43,066 bases of DNA from Candidatus Iainarchaeum sp. (GTDB taxonomy: Archaea > B1Sed10-29 > WALL01): NCBI GenBank assembly GCA_021162685.1, contig JAGGYF010000044.1, positions 1 to 43,066 on the forward strand, read 5' to 3'. The notes beneath the pieces were generated by a model. The model was not told the DNA's origin. It was given only the letters and a program-made list of their open reading frames with translations, and searched no databases. A program made the translations under genes and the position numbers. Positions 1 to 26,614 of this stretch are shown piece by piece; within the stretch, counting starts at the first letter, position 1, and each line of letters opens with the position of its first letter.

Positions 1-881
1 GAATTGTATCCCAAAACCTTATCAATAAATCCTTCGATAATCAGCTTAGTATTTGTGCTTCTCACCCACTTATTCTCACTCTTCAACACATTCAAAAAAT
101 CCTTCATCACATCCTTATCAAACGCCTTTGGATTATACTCTAAAATCTTATCAATAAATCCCTCTTTTATCAACTCAACGGTCCCCTCCCTCACTCTCCA
201 ATCATCACTCTTCAACCCATTCAAAAAACTTTCCACATGATCCTTAGTAATCATCTCTGGATCAAATGCATCTGGACTGTACTTTTTAACATTTTCTAGA
301 ACGCCCCTGTTTATTACACTAGCAATACTTATTCTTACCTCCCCATCCTCACTCTTCAACAAATCCAAAATACCTTTCATCACATCCTTATCAAACGCCT
401 TTGGATTATACTCTAAAATCTTATCAATAAATCCCTCTTTTATCAACCAAGCAGTTAGGTATCTTACATCCTCATTCTCACTCTTCAACAAATCCAAAAT
501 ACCTTTCATCACATCCTTATCAAACGCCTCTTTATTATATTTCAAAACCTTTTCAACAAACCCAAATCTCATCAACCAAGCAGTTTTCTTCCTTACATCC
601 CCATCCTCACTCTTCAACCCATTCAAAAAACTCTCCACATGCTTCTTTGTAATCATACTAGGATCAAACGCATTTGAATTGTATCCCAAAACCTTTTCAA
701 TAAATCCTTTATTTATCAACCAAGCAGTTTCCTTCCTTACATCCTCATCCTTACTCTTCAACAAATCCAAGATAGTTCCCACAACATCTTTTCTTGCATA
801 TTCTTCAGGATTTTCATCAACTAGTCGCAATACATCATCAGTTCTCCCTGCTTTTATCAACTCTTTTATATCTTTCATCAT
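1..881 (-). CDS. HEAT/armadillo-like helical repeat protein (3' end runs off the window)
   Basis: Not in the ORF track. Manual translation from ATG at 881 is open to the window edge: MMKDIKELIKAGRTDDVLRLVDENPEEYARKDVVGTILDLLKSKDEDVRKETAWLINKGFIEKVLGYN... It contains about six 43/48-aa repeats of LxxLKSEDxxVRxxxxxLIxxGFIDKILxYNPxAFD. Confidence 0.85.
   Translation of the reverse strand, partial: MMKDIKELIKAGRTDDVLRLVDENPEEYARKDVVGTILDLLKSKDEDVRKETAWLINKGFIEKVLGYNSNAFDPSMITKKHVESFLNGLKSEDGDVRKKTAWLMRFGFVEKVLKYNKEAFDKDVMKGILDLLKSENEDVRYLTAWLIKEGFIDKILEYNPKAFDKDVMKGILDLLKSEDGEVRISIASVINRGVLENVKKYSPDAFDPEMITKDHVESFLNGLKSDDWRVREGTVELIKEGFIDKILEYNPKAFDKDVMKDFLNVLKSENKWVRSTNTKLIIEGFIDKVLGYN
103..528. 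repeat. Intragenic DNA repeats of the HEAT-like gene
   Basis: 72 bp identical at 103-174 and 376-447 (offset 273 = 91 aa). About 50 bp identical at ~348-399 and ~477-528 (offset 129 = 43 aa). Confidence 0.85.
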
Positions 882-1028
882 GTAAATTAATATTATTGCA
901 AATATAAAAAGGTTTGGGCACTGGTTAAATCAAGTTAAATAGGTCCAAATAAAATAAACCATATCTTTTATTGATCTGACCAAGATAAATCGGCTTTCCG
1001 GAACCTGACTTTATCGGGCACTGTCAAC

Positions 1029-1931
1029 TTAACCCTTCTTCTCTCTCTTCTTAACAAGATCTATAATCTCATCAGCGCTCTCGGATTCATCAAGTTCTTT
1101 CTGTCTTATGACTGATACTCCCTTTATGTTATCTGGAACCTGCACTTTCTCTAGTATATAGATTGGATGCGTCTCAAAAAATGAGCCCGTTTTTTTCATA
1201 AAATCTGCTTTCATCCTTGCATACCTTGATGTTGTTTTATCCACAAGTAATGCTTCTTTCTCTTTTGCAATGGCATCAAATCCACGATAGACAGGCACAA
1301 CCTCAAAACCTATGTCTTGCATCTTTTTCAAATAAGGAGGAAGTTCTTCGCTTTCACAACTCGCCGGTGTTGTCAACAAATCAATATTCTTTATCACATT
1401 TGTATCCAGCACACTTTCAATATGTTTCGCTTTTTGGAACTCAATATTCATCTCGCCTCTCTGATAGTTGTATATTGTCTCCCTGCTTACACCTAATAAG
1501 TGTGCAAGTTGTGAGATGCTTATATTGAGTTCTCTCATCCGTTCTTGAAGCACATGGGGTTTTATCTCAGCAACAACCTTTCCTTTGAAAAAACGTTTTT
1601 CTGGAGCAATGTTATCCAAAAAATAATTTGAAAGTGTACCAACAGTTATTGCTTTTATGCCATATCTCTCATAAACAACTCCATCCTCTAATTCACGTAC
1701 CTTTGTTTTTTCGCCAACAATGAGAGGTGTTGCACATAAACTTGCACTAATAGCTTTCAATTCTTTTGCCTGGCTTTCCCTGATGGAATCTATGTTTGAA
1801 AGCACTTTAAAAAGAAGAAGTGTAGCCCCCTTTTTTGCAGCTAAGTCAAAACAACTTTTTCTCTCAAGCGGTGCAAAGCAGGCGAACCCCGCTTTTTCAA
1901 GCGTGGCCACCAGCTTATCTTTTATGTTCAT
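1029..1931 (-). CDS. Archaeal HTH transcriptional regulator (COG1395-like)
   Basis: N-terminal SCFDLAAKK..LLFKVLSNIDS, LEDGVVYERYGI and an Xre-type HTH (ISQLAHLLGVSRETIYNYQRG). Confidence 0.85.
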   Translation of the reverse strand: MNIKDKLVATLEKAGFACFAPLERKSCFDLAAKKGATLLLFKVLSNIDSIRESQAKELKAISASLCATPLIVGEKTKVRELEDGVVYERYGIKAITVGTLSNYFLDNIAPEKRFFKGKVVAEIKPHVLQERMRELNISISQLAHLLGVSRETIYNYQRGEMNIEFQKAKHIESVLDTNVIKNIDLLTTPASCESEELPPYLKKMQDIGFEVVPVYRGFDAIAKEKEALLVDKTTSRYARMKADFMKKTGSFFETHPIYILEKVQVPDNIKGVSVIRQKELDESESADEIIDLVKKREKKG

Positions 1932-18576: not shown

Positions 18577-20394
18577 CTATTTTAATTCCTCTGTCTTTAA
18601 ATGCCTTTTCACTAATGACACAATGTATTCTCCTTTTTGCGGAGCCCTCTCAAGTATCTTTTTTCTGGCAACATCAAAAAATGCATTAATGTTCTCCCTT
18701 CCTGTTACAATCCCCTCCTTTTCTGCGCTGTGAGATATTAGCTTTGCGATCTCTCTTGCCAATACATCAGCAGCTTCCTCTTTCTTTGGGCTGTATATGC
18801 TTTTGCTTACATAATATACCTCTGGCTTTTCCTTTTCTTCAACTGTGAAGTTAGACAAGTCCCCATCTAACACCCAACCCGTTTTTCCAAACGCAGTAAG
18901 CATATGGTCAATTGCCCTCCCCACATGTTGCCTTAGCTTTCCCTGTTTGATCTCCTCCTCTGTAAATATCTTCCTCCACAGGTCTTCACCTTTATATTCC
19001 TCCCTTGTTATAAGCCCTCCTCCAACAAACACAAAATCAATTATCCTTGAGATGGGTATATGCTTGGAAAGTGTTTCGTCTACCTTCATCCTTTTCTCAA
19101 TTTCAAGTGTTGGTTCACGCGGGTGTTTTATAACCACACCATCTATAGTTTTATGTACTGTATGTTTGTCTGTTGATGCTAGGTACTCTCCAGTTATGGC
19201 AACATCTTTTATCTTGTGCACCAATCCCAATTTATCAATCTTACCAAATATCTTGTCCAAGAGGGATGGTCTTCCTACAACATATAAGGGAACCTTTATG
19301 TCAGGTGGTGGCTCTACTGGTTTTAGTGTTGTGGATGATACCTTTGCCTCCCCTTTTTTTAAATCCTTTATCTTCCATTTTTCCTCATGTAGATTTATCC
19401 CAGCCTTTTCCAATTCCTTATATCTGTTGAGCAGGGACTCCATCTCGTTTATAATCTCCTTTGCAGTTGATTGTGGATACTCATCATATATCCTTCTTTT
19501 GACATATTCTTTTAACTTCTCATAAACATGTTCCTCACCAGTTACCTTTTTCTCCTTTATTCTTGCATGGTCAAGTTGTGTAGCAATCATCCCAGCAGTA
19601 AAAAAAGGGACTTGTTCTTTGTTTATGTGCTCGCCTGGTACAATTATGCCTCTGTCTATATAGACAACATCATACTTTCTGCCTGATCTTGATATGTTGT
19701 CCAGGAATGTTCTCAATGTGTTTATCCTGGTTTTGTACTCATTCTGTACGTAATCTGGAAGGTATTTGAAATCAATCTTTTCTGTTTCCCCCTCCAAATC
19801 CTCTAATGTCTTCTGGAGTTTCTCCCTTAGATATACATCAGCCTCTCTTACAACAAAATTCGTCTGCTTTCCATCAATCACATATCCCTTTTTGGATGCA
19901 ACATCAATGATTGCATCCAACTGTTTTTTTATAATCTCTTCAAAGTCTCCTCTTCTGATTGCATCCTCATCAAACTCAATCCTAGACAAGTCATATGGCC
20001 CCTCATACGTTTCTGTCACTATTGCACCGTGTTTCTTATCTATAAATGGGGTGTACACAGGAATAGATGTTAAGATGACACTCCCAACCTCCATAAAATG
20101 CTTTGCTTTCTTCATGGTTTTTCCTATATCCAATGATTCCTTGATAGTGTCAGAGGTAGGGAATTTTGCGACAATGGGCCCTCTTGCTTCTTCATAGTCC
20201 CTGAGTGCCATATCTTTTATGAAACCAATACCTTCTCTTCTAAGCCCATGCTTTGTTGTAAATACATGGTATTCATTGCCTGAACGTATGTATTTATCTA
20301 CCTGGATAAAAGTAGCAAAAGGTTCTGGAATCCTCTTTTCCTTTAAGGATTCTGGAATCTCCTTAAAAGGCTCTGCCTTCTTCTTAAATACCAC
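18577..20394 (-). CDS. Orphan protein with two tandem kinase-like domains
   Basis: Domain 1: IRSGNEYHVF, VAKF, IDGKQTNF, VYIDRG. Domain 2: VVIKHP, LDGDLSNF, VYYVSKS. Confidence 0.6.
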   Translation of the reverse strand: MVFKKKAEPFKEIPESLKEKRIPEPFATFIQVDKYIRSGNEYHVFTTKHGLRREGIGFIKDMALRDYEEARGPIVAKFPTSDTIKESLDIGKTMKKAKHFMEVGSVILTSIPVYTPFIDKKHGAIVTETYEGPYDLSRIEFDEDAIRRGDFEEIIKKQLDAIIDVASKKGYVIDGKQTNFVVREADVYLREKLQKTLEDLEGETEKIDFKYLPDYVQNEYKTRINTLRTFLDNISRSGRKYDVVYIDRGIIVPGEHINKEQVPFFTAGMIATQLDHARIKEKKVTGEEHVYEKLKEYVKRRIYDEYPQSTAKEIINEMESLLNRYKELEKAGINLHEEKWKIKDLKKGEAKVSSTTLKPVEPPPDIKVPLYVVGRPSLLDKIFGKIDKLGLVHKIKDVAITGEYLASTDKHTVHKTIDGVVIKHPREPTLEIEKRMKVDETLSKHIPISRIIDFVFVGGGLITREEYKGEDLWRKIFTEEEIKQGKLRQHVGRAIDHMLTAFGKTGWVLDGDLSNFTVEEKEKPEVYYVSKSIYSPKKEEAADVLAREIAKLISHSAEKEGIVTGRENINAFFDVARKKILERAPQKGEYIVSLVKRHLKTEELK

Positions 20395-20749: not shown

Positions 20750-21022
20750 ATGGAGAACAAGTATAATATAAAAATAGTAAACATGGTTGCATCTGCAAAT
20801 TTTAATATAAATCTAGACCTCTTTGCGCTGGCAAGGGAGGTTGATACAGTAGAATACGAGCCAGAGCAGTTCCCAGGCGCTATTCTGAAGCTGAGCAACC
20901 CAAAAACAAGCCTCCTATTGTTCAAGAATGGAAAGGTTATATGCACTGGCGCCCGCTCTGAGAAGGATGTTGAGAAAGCGCTCAAGAAGACCATAGAAAT
21001 CATAAAGAAGTTTGCAGCATGA
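20750..21022 (+). CDS. tbp: TATA-box binding protein, single-repeat form (90 aa)
   Basis: KIVNMVAS, LDL, YEPEQFPG, LLFKNGKVICTGARS. Only one TBP repeat, then a stop and the next gene. Confidence 0.9.
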   Translation: MENKYNIKIVNMVASANFNINLDLFALAREVDTVEYEPEQFPGAILKLSNPKTSLLLFKNGKVICTGARSEKDVEKALKKTIEIIKKFAA

Positions 21023-21799: not shown

Positions 21800-22216
21800 A
21801 TGAATGGCATATGTGATGTTGGAGCATTTGAGACATGTATATACGCCCTCTACTTTGTGAGCTTTGTACTGAACATTATAGCAGTATATTATGCATGGCA
21901 GTTCCGCAAATGGTATGCAGAGGAGGTTGGGAGGGCATTGAAGTTTATATGTTACTCATTCACGCTTCTTCTGGTTATCTACGTGACTATTGGGCTTTCT
22001 ATTATCTACAGTCAGGTAGAATATGGCGTTGTTTTGATGCCGCAGATAGATAATTCATGTGTTCCATGGTTATTAATACCATGGATCCTTATGTCACTAG
22101 TTGCAAGCGCACTCCTGTGGAAAGCGAGTACAATTATGAGAGACATGGCTGAACGTATTATTGAAAAGGAAAAACAGGATAGAAAACGAAAAGCCAGGAA
22201 ATCAAAGCCCAAGTGA
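21800..22216 (+). CDS. Membrane protein (3 TM)
   Basis: Three hydrophobic helices and a basic tail; GGTGA RBS. Confidence 0.75.
   Translation: MNGICDVGAFETCIYALYFVSFVLNIIAVYYAWQFRKWYAEEVGRALKFICYSFTLLLVIYVTIGLSIIYSQVEYGVVLMPQIDNSCVPWLLIPWILMSLVASALLWKASTIMRDMAERIIEKEKQDRKRKARKSKPK
22180..22192 (-). terminator. U-rich terminator of the candidate ncRNA
   Basis: TTTTCGTTTTCT immediately after the closing stem of domain 3. Confidence 0.5.
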
Positions 22217-22634
22217 GGTTGGGATTTGCCCTACCTCATTATCCTGCTTTTGACGGCAGGGTGAGAGATTTCCTCTCGCCTTAACCGCTTGACGCTTACG
22301 CGTCAATTGGTTTCCTGGTTTCGGACAAGCCTACACCAGGACCGTAACCTACTCGCAGGAACTTGAGTTGCTCTTCCCTGGCTCGTTTCCAGGCATCTGA
22401 GCTTAAGCCAAGCAGGATGTTTCTTCCTGCTTAGTCACCTCCGTTTGGGGGAACACATGGTTCCGACCTACTCCGGAGAGCTTAAGTTGCTCTGCCTGGA
22501 TCCCCGGATTTCAGAGCTCAGGCGTCGGAGCATTTTGCTCCAACACTTAGGCTTGGTTCGGTGTGAGATGAGGAGCCATGAAGGCCCTCTTCAGTGACCT
22601 ACTACAAGCACCTGAGTTGCTCAATCCGGGGGGC
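22192..22634 (-). ncRNA. Candidate novel structured ncRNA made of three tandem homologous domains
   Basis: GC-rich intergenic region. Three domains (22502-22631, 22388-22500, 22192-22383), each closed by its own stem and each containing GAGCAACT and AGTAGGT, with compensatory stem changes. Confidence 0.8.
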
Positions 22635-22653
22635 AATACTAGTGGAAATCTTA

Positions 22654-22662
22654 TTATAAAAA
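22654..22662 (-). promoter_or_regulatory. TATA box for the candidate ncRNA
   Basis: TTTTTATAA about 24 nt upstream of the G at 22634 that precedes domain 1. Confidence 0.6.
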
Positions 22663-22694
22663 TATATCGTGCAAAAAATATATCTACTCATTTT

Positions 22695-23273
22695 TTAGTT
22701 ATCTCTTCTGAGTGCATTTGTAAATACTTCTCTAACCCAACTCTTCTCTTTGAGAAAATCCCGTAGGAAATGCTCAAAATACTGTTTGTTTACAAAAAGC
22801 ACACCATTGTATAATGCCCACCGTGATGGAGTGTCTAGTACATCAATACTGTAATCAACAAGACCTATGGGCAGAACTGTATGGTCCATTCCTGTTGCAA
22901 TAGAGAATGCCTTTCCAAGGTATCCAGCACCACAGCATTGCAAAAACAGGTCATCAGCGCTATTAAGAACATTACTACCTGCAACCATGAGCATACCGTT
23001 ATTATCAAATCTCAGCTGCTTCTCTGTGCCTTTCTGTGTCTTTTCTTCTATGGAAAGCGCGGCCCAATGGTCTGGTTTCCACGCAAATATATCTACTTCA
23101 TAGGTATATGAGCGCCTCGGCAATGCCTTGTTCTTTTCAATCCATACCCTTGCCTCTGTGCTATTGTTGTTTTTTATAAAATCAGAGATTGTACTCTGCT
23201 TTAATCTGTGAATATAGTTCATCCCATACTTTTTTAGGATATTAACTATCCTCAATTCCTCTTCCAGTCCCAA
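22695..23273 (-). CDS. PD-(D/E)XK restriction-endonuclease-like protein
   Basis: N-terminal helix with EEE, then YEVDIFAWK..SIEEKT (D..ExK pattern). TTG start after GGTGA. Confidence 0.6.
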   Translation of the reverse strand: MGLEEELRIVNILKKYGMNYIHRLKQSTISDFIKNNNSTEARVWIEKNKALPRRSYTYEVDIFAWKPDHWAALSIEEKTQKGTEKQLRFDNNGMLMVAGSNVLNSADDLFLQCCGAGYLGKAFSIATGMDHTVLPIGLVDYSIDVLDTPSRWALYNGVLFVNKQYFEHFLRDFLKEKSWVREVFTNALRRDN

Positions 23274-23371: not shown

Positions 23372-23971
23372 ATGAAGCGCATAAAGAAGAAATTAAGGAA
23401 TATACAATGGGCAGTTTTTATTATTGTGCTCTCTTTGATCATATTTGCTATTGCTGTTTATTGGATAAGCGGCAGCCCAACCACCTACAACCAGACATAT
23501 GAGAAACCAGAGGGCACCATTCATCAAGAAAATAAGTCTGAGCCACAGTCTGAAAATACAACATTTGCCAGGCAGGAGACCAAGGTTGAAAACGCCACCA
23601 GAGAGATTAGGTGTGTAGACCTGATCACTGGTATTGATAGCATCCCGGATGCAATGGAATGTTTTGGTGATAATTATCTTGCTTGTACATACTACTTCTT
23701 GTTGAAGGCAAGAGAAGTCCAGGGGAGTGAATATGAGGACGGATATTATAAGCAACAACTAATCGTTGCATATGCGAATAAGGCAATGGAATGTGCGCAG
23801 TTTGGGCGGTATGTTGATAATCGTTTCCCAGAGGATACTGGCAAAACAATTAGCGTGTATCTGAATACATACCAAACCTGCTACGAAAACCAGGAATGTT
23901 GGAAGAGCATAGGAACAGAAGCATTGAAGGATGTTGATGCATTGATAGCTGAACTCAGTGGTTATATCTAA
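23372..23971 (+). CDS. Membrane-anchored extracellular protein
   Basis: Basic N-terminus, one TM segment, polar linker with NxT/S sequons and a Cys-containing helical domain. Confidence 0.75.
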   Translation: MKRIKKKLRNIQWAVFIIVLSLIIFAIAVYWISGSPTTYNQTYEKPEGTIHQENKSEPQSENTTFARQETKVENATREIRCVDLITGIDSIPDAMECFGDNYLACTYYFLLKAREVQGSEYEDGYYKQQLIVAYANKAMECAQFGRYVDNRFPEDTGKTISVYLNTYQTCYENQECWKSIGTEALKDVDALIAELSGYI

Positions 23972-24004
23972 ACATTTATATACTCCTGTTTGCAAAAAAG
24001 AATC

Positions 24005-25081
24005 ATGCCAATACCACCAACAACACCAGAGGAAGTTTTTAAACAATTCAGGCGTTTCAGAAACAAGGTCAAGTCATTTGAGAGAAGGAGTAAGTACCTG
24101 AGTTGCTTAAAGAGATTGACTGTCATTACTGACATTGTCAAATCAGAACCAAAGGCAAGTTTAGTGTTTGACCTTACAGATGAGAACCTTAGGCCTTTAA
24201 CTATGAAAGAGGCAGCCAAGACAGTTCGCATAGATATCTCACCTTTATTTAGGGATGAAACACAAGAGTTACTGAAAAGGCATTTTCTTAGAGGGAAGAA
24301 GGACATTGATGAGGTATTTGCAGAAGCATTGATGAACAATGCTGAATTAAATCCAGGTCATCGTTCAAATAGAGAGATGAAAGAACAACTGGTTAGTATC
24401 ATAAAGGATATGGAGATGAACGAAAAAGAAAAGATCGTAGGGATTCTCCTGGCACGTCCAGAAAAAGCACGACTTCCTGAGGGGGCTGATGAACAACTAA
24501 TATCTCTACTGGACGAATTCGCAGAGAATAGCGATATACTCAACCCTCGACTCATATATGTTCCGACATATGTGCCGCGAAACCATATTTTAGCAAGAAT
24601 ACCTGATGAACAAAAAAGGTTGATGGAAGAACAAAAGATATTAGAAGCAGAGGGAAGAATGTTTTTAGAGCCAATAAAGAATATGTTAAGATCCATAAGC
24701 AATTCAGATATAAAAGAGAAACACCTTGAAAATCTTGATGCATTTCTATTTGATTTGAGAGAGAGGCACACACATATCCTTGAAACGAAGATCAATGATA
24801 TCCCATTTAGGATGCACTACAACCCATTTACTGGTGAGTTTGGGATTAGTTCAAACAATCTTCATAAATTATTGGAGCATTTGGGCGACCCCCTCATAAA
24901 ATATAAGGAGAACATAAGACCATACTCCTTAGAATTTGAAATAGACAAGGAGGGAAATATAACAATACCAAAAAAGCGAAAAACAGAAAACACGTTCTCC
25001 TATGTCTATGTTCCATACACTGCGCTATTCCAAGCACTACACAAAAGGTATAAAGAAAAGATTGCGGAAGAGTGGAAATAA
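24005..25081 (+). CDS. Hypothetical charged protein
   Basis: Long open frame; ATG at 24005 (MPIPPTTPEE). No recognised motif. Confidence 0.75.
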   Translation: MPIPPTTPEEVFKQFRRFRNKVKSFERRSKYLSCLKRLTVITDIVKSEPKASLVFDLTDENLRPLTMKEAAKTVRIDISPLFRDETQELLKRHFLRGKKDIDEVFAEALMNNAELNPGHRSNREMKEQLVSIIKDMEMNEKEKIVGILLARPEKARLPEGADEQLISLLDEFAENSDILNPRLIYVPTYVPRNHILARIPDEQKRLMEEQKILEAEGRMFLEPIKNMLRSISNSDIKEKHLENLDAFLFDLRERHTHILETKINDIPFRMHYNPFTGEFGISSNNLHKLLEHLGDPLIKYKENIRPYSLEFEIDKEGNITIPKKRKTENTFSYVYVPYTALFQALHKRYKEKIAEEWK

Positions 25082-25084
25082 AGT

Positions 25085-25588
25085 TTACCCAATCGCCGTT
25101 TTCACATGCTCTTCTTTCTTCCTTTTCTTCACGTGTGTTGCTGCCTTTTTTATGTGTTCTTTTACTGATATCTTCTTTTTACCTTTCTTTGGTGCTTTTA
25201 GGTATAATTGAGCAGCAACAAACCCAACTGCAAAGTTATATAATGCACTCCACTGTGTTTCAACCAAACCAGCAAGTTTTTGTTTTGTGTAGAAAAGGAA
25301 TTCATACCATTTCCCAGGTGTTGAGCCAATAAATGTTACCAAATAACCATCCTTTTCTGGTGCAACCAACCATTTAAATCTGTATTCATATGGGATAAAC
25401 CTTACAACGCAAAATATAAGGCCTTTATTTGGATTTACTTCAAGTGTTGCATCAAATCCTGGCTCTTTGCCATAATTAAATCTAGCATCATCAATTAATC
25501 CTTCTGATATGGACTCAATGGCCCTTACGATAACCTCTTTTGGGATATGCCTGAAATGTGCCTGTTCCTTTATTATAGCCATATACAC
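25085..25588 (-). CDS. Hypothetical protein with basic C-terminal tail
   Basis: 167-aa ORF with a GGTGG RBS. Confidence 0.7.
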   Translation of the reverse strand: MYMAIIKEQAHFRHIPKEVIVRAIESISEGLIDDARFNYGKEPGFDATLEVNPNKGLIFCVVRFIPYEYRFKWLVAPEKDGYLVTFIGSTPGKWYEFLFYTKQKLAGLVETQWSALYNFAVGFVAAQLYLKAPKKGKKKISVKEHIKKAATHVKKRKKEEHVKTAIG

Positions 25589-25627: not shown

Positions 25628-26614
25628 TTACCAATCTGTTAGCTTTCTCTGTGTGCTTTCTGATAAGGGCTTGGCTTTGAACCCTCTCCTACGCAGTTGC
25701 CTGGCGAATTCTTTTGCATAGCCGTGTACTGTATATACCTCTCTTGGGTTGCTCTGCTCTACATACTCAATAAGCTGGTTGAAATCTGCATGGTCACTGA
25801 GTTGAAATGCTCTATCAACTCCCCTATTTCTAAATGAATACATCTTTGCCCAGCCCGTCGCAATGCCAGTTACTACAGGATACGAGAATTGTGCTTCAAT
25901 AGCGTCAACAAATTTTCTGTTCAACATATGTGTTGGGACAATAGCAACAAAGTTATCCCGCATGATCTCTTTTGCTTCATCACTATCAAATGACAGGTAT
26001 TTTCCAAGTTTTACTCCATTTTTCTCATAGATTTTGTTGATAGCCGCAATCTTTGGATGGACAAGAACAACATCACACACTTCACTCAATATCTTTGTCA
26101 ATTCCTGCGCTTTTCCGAATGAGTATCCTCCCATCAAGATAATCCTGCCTGCATCCATGTTTTTTTTAGCCCATGCTGCTATCTCATGGCACACCTCTTC
26201 ATGTTTTGGAAATTCAAAATGATTCAATCCAAACGTTGATTCAATAATCAAGATGTCTGCGTGCAGGATGTCTGCTCCTGGAAATAAGATTGAGTCCTCC
26301 ACCCTTATGTCTCCTGTGTATACTATGCCAGAATCCAACATAAATTGAGAAGAGCCCAATACATGTCCAGCATTGTAAGATGTTATAAAATCATCTCCAA
26401 TCTGCACCTTTTTGTTATATTCTATTACTTCGCCATCTATACCCGAAATCTGTAATGTCTGCCTTGTCATCAACATCTTTGTTTTGTGAGGTACTGCATG
26501 ATCTGAATGCGCGTGTGAGATACATACTATACCCTCACTTACGCTCTTATGCGGATCAAAAAGTATTTTAGTATCCTTTCTTACATATGTTATACCGTTG
26601 TTCATGTAGAGCAT
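25628..26614 (-). CDS. Metallo-beta-lactamase/beta-CASP nuclease (COG1236-like)
   Basis: ISHAHSDH, AGHVLGS, YTGD, ESTFG, LSDHADF, TVHG; C-terminal QRKLTDW. Confidence 0.92.
   Translation of the reverse strand: MLYMNNGITYVRKDTKILFDPHKSVSEGIVCISHAHSDHAVPHKTKMLMTRQTLQISGIDGEVIEYNKKVQIGDDFITSYNAGHVLGSSQFMLDSGIVYTGDIRVEDSILFPGADILHADILIIESTFGLNHFEFPKHEEVCHEIAAWAKKNMDAGRIILMGGYSFGKAQELTKILSEVCDVVLVHPKIAAINKIYEKNGVKLGKYLSFDSDEAKEIMRDNFVAIVPTHMLNRKFVDAIEAQFSYPVVTGIATGWAKMYSFRNRGVDRAFQLSDHADFNQLIEYVEQSNPREVYTVHGYAKEFARQLRRRGFKAKPLSESTQRKLTDW

Follow-up and report, generated by a model that had tools for sequence, protein, structure and literature searches.

A nuclease-like gene and a structured RNA of three homologous domains lie next to each other in a 43,066-nucleotide (nt) stretch of DNA from the archaeon Candidatus Iainarchaeum sp. 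(GenBank JAGGYF010000044.1), the whole of which we call the window. The two are probably an independent nuclease and an independent RNA that stand side by side through inherited synteny. The preliminary description of this DNA had proposed that the RNA neutralizes or guides the nuclease; the distribution of the two elements and the promoter-like element of the RNA speak against that proposal. Both the gene and the RNA are real, and we document the fold and motif of the protein, the distribution of both elements and a conserved element upstream of the RNA. Functional independence, the substrate of the nuclease and the binding partner of the RNA are what we infer. Within the archaeal genome it comes from (G000; 1.11 Mb, 98% complete), the window is contig C20.

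The arrangement first described held up on inspection. A 192-amino-acid (aa) open reading frame (ORF) with a nuclease-like E/D/E-x-K pattern ends 64 nt before the RNA starts, on a common strand, and the genes on either side of this pair (21800-22216 and 23372-23971) lie on the plus strand. Co-occurrence was examined in all 31 genomes for the archaeal class. The RNA was found in 11, the gene in 8 and both in 6 (G000, G001, G004, G006, G009 and G016). Nine of the 11 RNA calls were strong; those in G014 and G024 were weak, with the conserved letters retained. Five of the 11 RNA-bearing genomes lack the gene. The preliminary description had suggested that RNA homologs found mostly without the gene would argue against a partnership; the split proved about even, six with and five without. 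At the RNA-only loci the next gene upstream is lipoprotein-like in G002, isochorismatase-like in G005 and, as direct neighbor, a PF18894 metallopeptidase gene in G014, and in G003 there was no trace of the nuclease gene in the 242 nt between the RNA and the contig end. Conversely, two of the eight gene-bearing genomes (G022 and G026) have no RNA. With filters off, no RNA was detected within reach of the gene in these two or on any of the five informative metagenome contigs (L037-L040 and L042); a sixth, L041, ends inside the gene and is uninformative on the RNA. The absences concern metagenome-assembled genomes of 77-92% completeness, and those at the level of the locus were seen directly. Since gene and RNA are separable, neither a toxin-antitoxin nor a guide-RNA mechanism is likely.

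The RNA-less loci have a recurrent organization. The PF18894 gene precedes the nuclease gene, and pyrG or Nop5-fibrillarin follows it. L040 and G016 share the order nuclease, 207/232-aa gene, HTH gene, and 36 nt stand in L040 in place of the RNA of G016. In these loci a gap of ~390 nt precedes the gene; to the eye it resembles a short ORF on the reverse strand rather than an RNA.

The closing helix (P1) of the RNA is preceded, at a distance of about 25-35 nt, by the end of a conserved element, TTTTTGCA(C)GAWA-NN-TTTATAWA. In the window the center of its TATA box is about 26 nt ahead of the first paired base of the RNA. The element is kept with the gene in G000, G004, G006, G009 and G016, and without it in G002, G003, G005 and G014. 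From its resemblance to an archaeal B-recognition element and TATA box, we take it as the putative promoter of the RNA itself. T-rich tails after the last RNA domain are also present in L004, L005, L006 and L007. A search of sequencing runs listed no RNA run, and only six DNA runs with 10-36% of words.

The RNA very probably represents a genuine, undescribed structured-RNA family with a variable count of tandem domains. The three structured domains reported earlier are borne out by folding z-score, covariance models and covariation. Together they span 437 nt (22194-22630), with a GC content of 52-54% against about 39% around them, and on either strand the predicted folding is much more stable than that of shuffled sequence (z = -7.5). 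The motif ..GAGCAACU.. ..GUAGGU.. is present three times. An 18-nt core is 72-83% alike among the three domains, and mean column identity is 57-64% over the domains of four loci; Tandem Repeats Finder gave no rows for the region. Units are 99-188 nt long. The RNA locus is single-copy in the genome, and domain number varies from one to four between genomes.

A blastn search of 60 relatives with the RNA as query gave no match outside the window, and a covariance model was needed. The same RNA was found 3' of the relatives of the gene in L004, L005 and L007, with four, two and three domains, respectively. A first model, built from seven short domains with the structure set by hand, recovered three held-out long domains (E values of 1e-12 to 1e-14) and new copies in L006. 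A second model (R2) recovers 22 domains from 11 loci. In the alignment of these domains 89.8% of cells pair versus 63.2% in shuffles, with slid controls all far lower; the alignment was fitted to the model, which favors the structure, and the margin is large. Both sides had changed in compensatory fashion in 30 of 32 pairs over the 22 domain copies. By our own count on the same alignment, 66 of 696 paired cells are G-U. The RNA was assigned to the minus strand because of the G-U pairs, the upstream TATA-type element and the downstream T-runs.

Each domain runs from P1 through a 3-nt bulge in the 3' strand (WGA), a 4-bp helix (GRGC/GCYC) and a 3-nt bulge in the 5' strand (AAC) into a helix P2. 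Beyond P2 is a three-way junction, whose first arm carries AGUA...(G/A)AA and whose second forms a hairpin, the loop being of the GAGAAAUAC type. Domain 1 has the GAGC/GCUC variant of the 4-bp helix, the junction arm AGUA..GAA and the hairpin. By inspection we take the AGUA...(G/A)AA of the first arm to be a loop-E or sarcin-ricin-like motif.

The RNA has no match among known families. At the gathering threshold Rfam 15 finds only three tRNAs in the whole window and no family in the RNA region, and at E<=10 the rows for that region are at chance level only, including RT-2 (RF03077) at E 3.1 and 9 bits. Signal recognition particle RNA and RNase P RNA were rejected as identities, both being located elsewhere in the genome, and so was 5S rRNA, the true copy of which is on another contig (C14:13600-13721). 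Modular RNAs are known from archaeal H/ACA sRNAs with 1-3 hairpins and from CsrB-type protein sponges, and the RNA resembles both in having 1-4 tandem copies of one unit whose number varies between genomes. Its units, however, are 99-188-nt three-way junctions, no ACA box was seen after them and no Rfam family, H/ACA or other, matches; an H/ACA sRNA was rejected as identity. A k-turn at the P1/P1b bulge was rejected since tandem G-A pairs are absent by inspection, and a cis-regulatory leader since the next downstream gene is convergent. In the part of the full-text literature that was accessible, no paper came up that deals with this kind of RNA, or with the gene, in these archaea.

The 192-aa ORF is a real, conserved gene. 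Its product belongs to no family in Pfam, NCBIfam, PADLOC or PHROGs; Pfam gave no match at E<=0.1 for this protein, nor at E<=1 for nine family members, and sequence searches of the PDB found no relative. A word-index search with the single protein returned itself as sole match, a full scan of 1.84 billion representatives returned eight relatives, and a profile search of 5.8 billion clusters returned 17 clusters, all annotated "hypothetical" and without Pfam domains. The relatives carry the labels Iainarchaeum or Diapherotrites. L51, R53, D61, W65, W70, A72, E76, K78 and K85 are invariant in the alignment, and a Glu is conserved in the first helix. D61, E76 and K78 are invariant in all nine members and E6 is kept in all eight that have an N-terminus; the putative catalytic residues are E6, D61, E76 and K78 (motif D61...E76-x-K78).

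AlphaFold2 with the family alignment gave a predicted local distance difference test (pLDDT) score of 87.8 and a predicted template modeling (pTM) score of 0.86; single-sequence prediction was unusable (pLDDT 37.8). The structural matches of the predicted fold are almost exclusively PD-(D/E)XK nucleases. The model has their alpha-beta-beta-beta-alpha-beta core, with D61 on strand 2 (residues 59-65), E76-x-K78 on strand 3 (72-78) and the upstream Glu. The nuclease-like fold anticipated from the sequence is thus supported by the model, its structural matches and the conserved motif. A protein atlas offered only leads at or below 0.90 (NERD, Mrr_cat), which we took as hints only. The closest known proteins are the archaeal PD-(D/E)XK nucleases Hjc (Holliday-junction resolvase), AF1548, NucS and the nuclease domains of Can2/Card1. 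Unlike these, the present protein carries additional helices between strands 1 and 2, a beta insertion that follows strand 3 and an extended C-terminus, and it has no sequence-profile match to Hjc or to any Pfam or NCBIfam family. That it is the Hjc of the cell was rejected: it lacks a PF01870 profile match, and a canonical PF01870 gene is on another contig. The family is a new, very small and unnamed one, confined to one DPANN class, with a catalytic site intact by sequence. Its product is predicted to be an endonuclease of the PD-(D/E)XK superfamily, metal-dependent and stand-alone.

These properties bear on the two mechanisms first proposed. Type III toxin-antitoxin loci (ToxIN, AbiQ/AntiQ, CptIN) have a nuclease gene beside an array of short, near-identical repeats that lies upstream of the toxin. 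A toxic nuclease neutralized by tandem RNA domains would resemble them only in broad outline, with a nuclease gene that adjoins a repeated structured RNA of the same orientation. The preliminary description had itself remarked that gene order and fold differ, which was correct: the RNA is downstream, and the fold is PD-(D/E)XK rather than the ToxN/AbiQ endoribonuclease. Moreover, the units are 99-188 nt long and diverged, the RNA has its own putative promoter, the host is archaeal, no PADLOC model matches, and the locus is single, syntenic and apparently vertically inherited. Whereas such a toxin should never occur without its antitoxin, the gene stands without the RNA in two genomes and five contigs. 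The toxin-antitoxin reading fails each defining feature that was tested, and we consider it extremely improbable.

An RNA-guided nuclease, for which the RNA would be guide or scaffold in the manner of CRISPR or IscB/TnpB systems, is very improbable as well. HEARO/omega RNA and IscB are obligately linked and mobile, and the present locus is like theirs in that a large structured RNA adjoins a nuclease gene, here on the same strand. Here, however, the linkage is facultative, the locus is syntenic and present in one copy, and the RNA matches no Rfam family. Neither a repeat-spacer array nor a transposon end is present, and the fold is PD-(D/E)XK, with no RuvC or HNH domain. The protein has only 192 aa; no longer or fused forms turned up when they were looked for, although this is weak evidence.

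The history of the locus was examined through its gene order and a protein tree. Families f1 and f2 form a clade (support 98/97), and G016 is placed weakly with the RNA-less G022, both being of family f8. Family members are deeply diverged, at 35-50% identity. As the tree broadly follows taxonomy, the gene seems to be vertically inherited, and the adjacency seems to go back to the ancestor of the class and to have been followed by repeated losses of one partner or the other alone. Relative to L004 and L007, the lipoprotein gene, nuclease gene and RNA of the window are inverted as one piece. This shared inversion does not single out the gene-RNA pair. Both elements belong to a conserved block of genes that extends beyond them.

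Alternatively, the nuclease could be a selfish or accessory gene, such as a homing-type or mobile endonuclease lodged beside an RNA gene. G002, G004 and G005 are of one genus and only G004 has the gene; the slot is therefore variable at short evolutionary range, as a selfish gene would predict. We nevertheless judge this improbable, given the largely taxonomic tree, the deep divergence, the single copy per genome and the lack of flanking repeats seen. Viral contigs contained no relative of the protein, and none of the 80 examined among 99 stretches matching a loose RNA pattern in such contigs passed model R2.

The preliminary description had allowed that the adjacency might be coincidental. 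It is indeed not obligate, but it is not random: in all six genomes that have both, the nuclease gene precedes the RNA on a common strand, across families f1, f2 and f8 with differing outer neighbors. The gap is only 57-70 nt in five of the six. Domain counts in genomes with the gene are 3, 3, 4, 2, 3 and 1, compared with 1-2 in RNA-only genomes. These three observations weigh against independence and suggest a facultative functional pair where both are kept, in which the nuclease would process the multi-domain RNA to units of one domain or would be bound and regulated by its loop-E-bearing domains. Such a pair is nonetheless unlikely, because each partner is found by itself in a number of genomes or contigs, the RNA has its own putative promoter, and the catalytic residues are equally conserved in relatives without the RNA. 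In G001, furthermore, an RelA/SpoT-domain gene on the opposite strand, in an AT-rich segment, sits between the two. At L006 the RelA/SpoT-domain gene segment between nuclease gene and RNA (719-1807, minus strand) has 30-42% GC in a contig of 52% GC and is probably a recent acquisition. Less probable again is an ancient, dispensable ribonucleoprotein pair, in which the enzyme would dock on the loop-E domains, one molecule to each and the RNA serving as scaffold or regulator, or would cut the 2-4-domain transcript to RNAs of a single domain.

Under the favored reading of two independent neighbors, the nuclease would cleave DNA or act as a structure-specific nuclease on nucleic acid with no need of the RNA. 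The RNA would be a separate, independently transcribed, single-copy non-coding gene of 1-4 tandem ~100-nt domains, each of which would bind a protein or ligand as a unit on its own. It may serve as a scaffold or decoy with one partner bound per domain, a role suggested by the varying domain number, the self-contained domains and the loop-E-like module. Candidate partners are the 167-aa protein with a Lys-rich tail encoded nearby and ribosomal proteins that bind loop E. The neighborhood would reflect the ancestral gene order of the class, a block with the PF18894 metallopeptidase gene, pyrG and Nop5-fibrillarin, from which either of the two can drop out alone.

The genomes of DPANN archaea are tiny, and many of their genes have no known function. 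The present analysis adds a PD-(D/E)XK family without a profile in Pfam, NCBIfam, PADLOC or PHROGs, and supplies a covariance model and a distribution for a structured RNA missing from Rfam 15. The comparative data turn the account of a nuclease plus RNA into a testable, probably negative statement. At the locus it is the RNA that stays constant, and it is worth study by itself. If the two did prove to be a pair, this would be a nuclease-RNA partnership of a kind not described in archaea.

Table 1. Features of the nuclease-RNA locus and other ORFs of the window.
Feature	Position	Strand	Remarks
Nuclease-type ORF	22695-23273	-	192 aa, TTG start, preceded by GGTGA
Promoter-like element of RNA	22652-22678	-	TTTTTTGCACGATA..TTTTTATAATA, between ORF stop and RNA; putative promoter
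RNA domain 1	22503-22630	-	covariance-model match E 2.3e-12, outside training set
RNA domain 2	22388-22500	-	architecture as in domain 1
RNA domain 3	22194-22381	-	domain core plus extra inserted hairpins; E 2.5e-14, outside training set
T-rich tail	22163-22193	-	CTTTTCGTTTTCTATCCTGTTTTTCCTTTTC, immediately 3' of domain 3; likely archaeal oligo-T termination signal
ORF	21800-22216	+	138 aa, predicted membrane protein, Lys-rich C-terminus
ORF	18577-20394	-	605 aa, no Pfam match
ORF	23990-25081	+	363 aa, no match in Pfam, NCBIfam, PADLOC or PHROGs
ORF	25085-25588	-	167 aa, Lys-rich tail, no Pfam family
ORF	25628-26614	-	metallo-beta-lactamase/RMMBL protein

On the other strand, the 3' end of the 138-aa ORF for a predicted membrane protein covers the last 23 nt of RNA domain 3 and also the T-rich tail; this 3' end may be mis-called, or the overlap may be a true one. 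Within domain 1, the stretch CACACCGAACC...CUAAG (22536-22557, minus strand) resembles loop C, helix III and loop B of the genome's own 5S rRNA (CAUACCGAACCCGGAAGUUAAG), and the domain consensus retains aUaCc.AA...UAA. No RF00001 row appeared for the RNA domain at E<=10, and an nhmmer domain profile did not hit the 5S rRNA of the genome. Ancestry of a domain from 5S rRNA was rejected for want of any profile or covariance-model match, and the resemblance is unexplained or coincidental.

The PF18894 gene ("putative phage metallopeptidase") was located at L043 1681-2100 (minus strand) and L037 3113-3484 (plus strand), and also in L008, L009, L040 and L042. It is a conserved upstream neighbor of the nuclease gene in RNA-less loci, often with a site-2-protease-like gene further upstream. 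The 167-aa and RMMBL genes of the window form a conserved pair. In L004, L006, L007, L014 and L016 this pair, in whole or as far as the locus extends, lies beside the RNA and convergent with it, and the 167-aa family is found in 14 of the 31 genomes of the class, RNA-less ones included.

A PF00352 search of the genome found no two-repeat TBP. There are instead two single-repeat TBP proteins of ~90-100 aa, one in the window (20750-21022, plus strand) and one on another contig (G000:C14:13306-13548), the second lying directly upstream of the 5S rRNA gene. The TBP homolog of L015 has a Lys-rich N-terminal extension and is 223 aa long.
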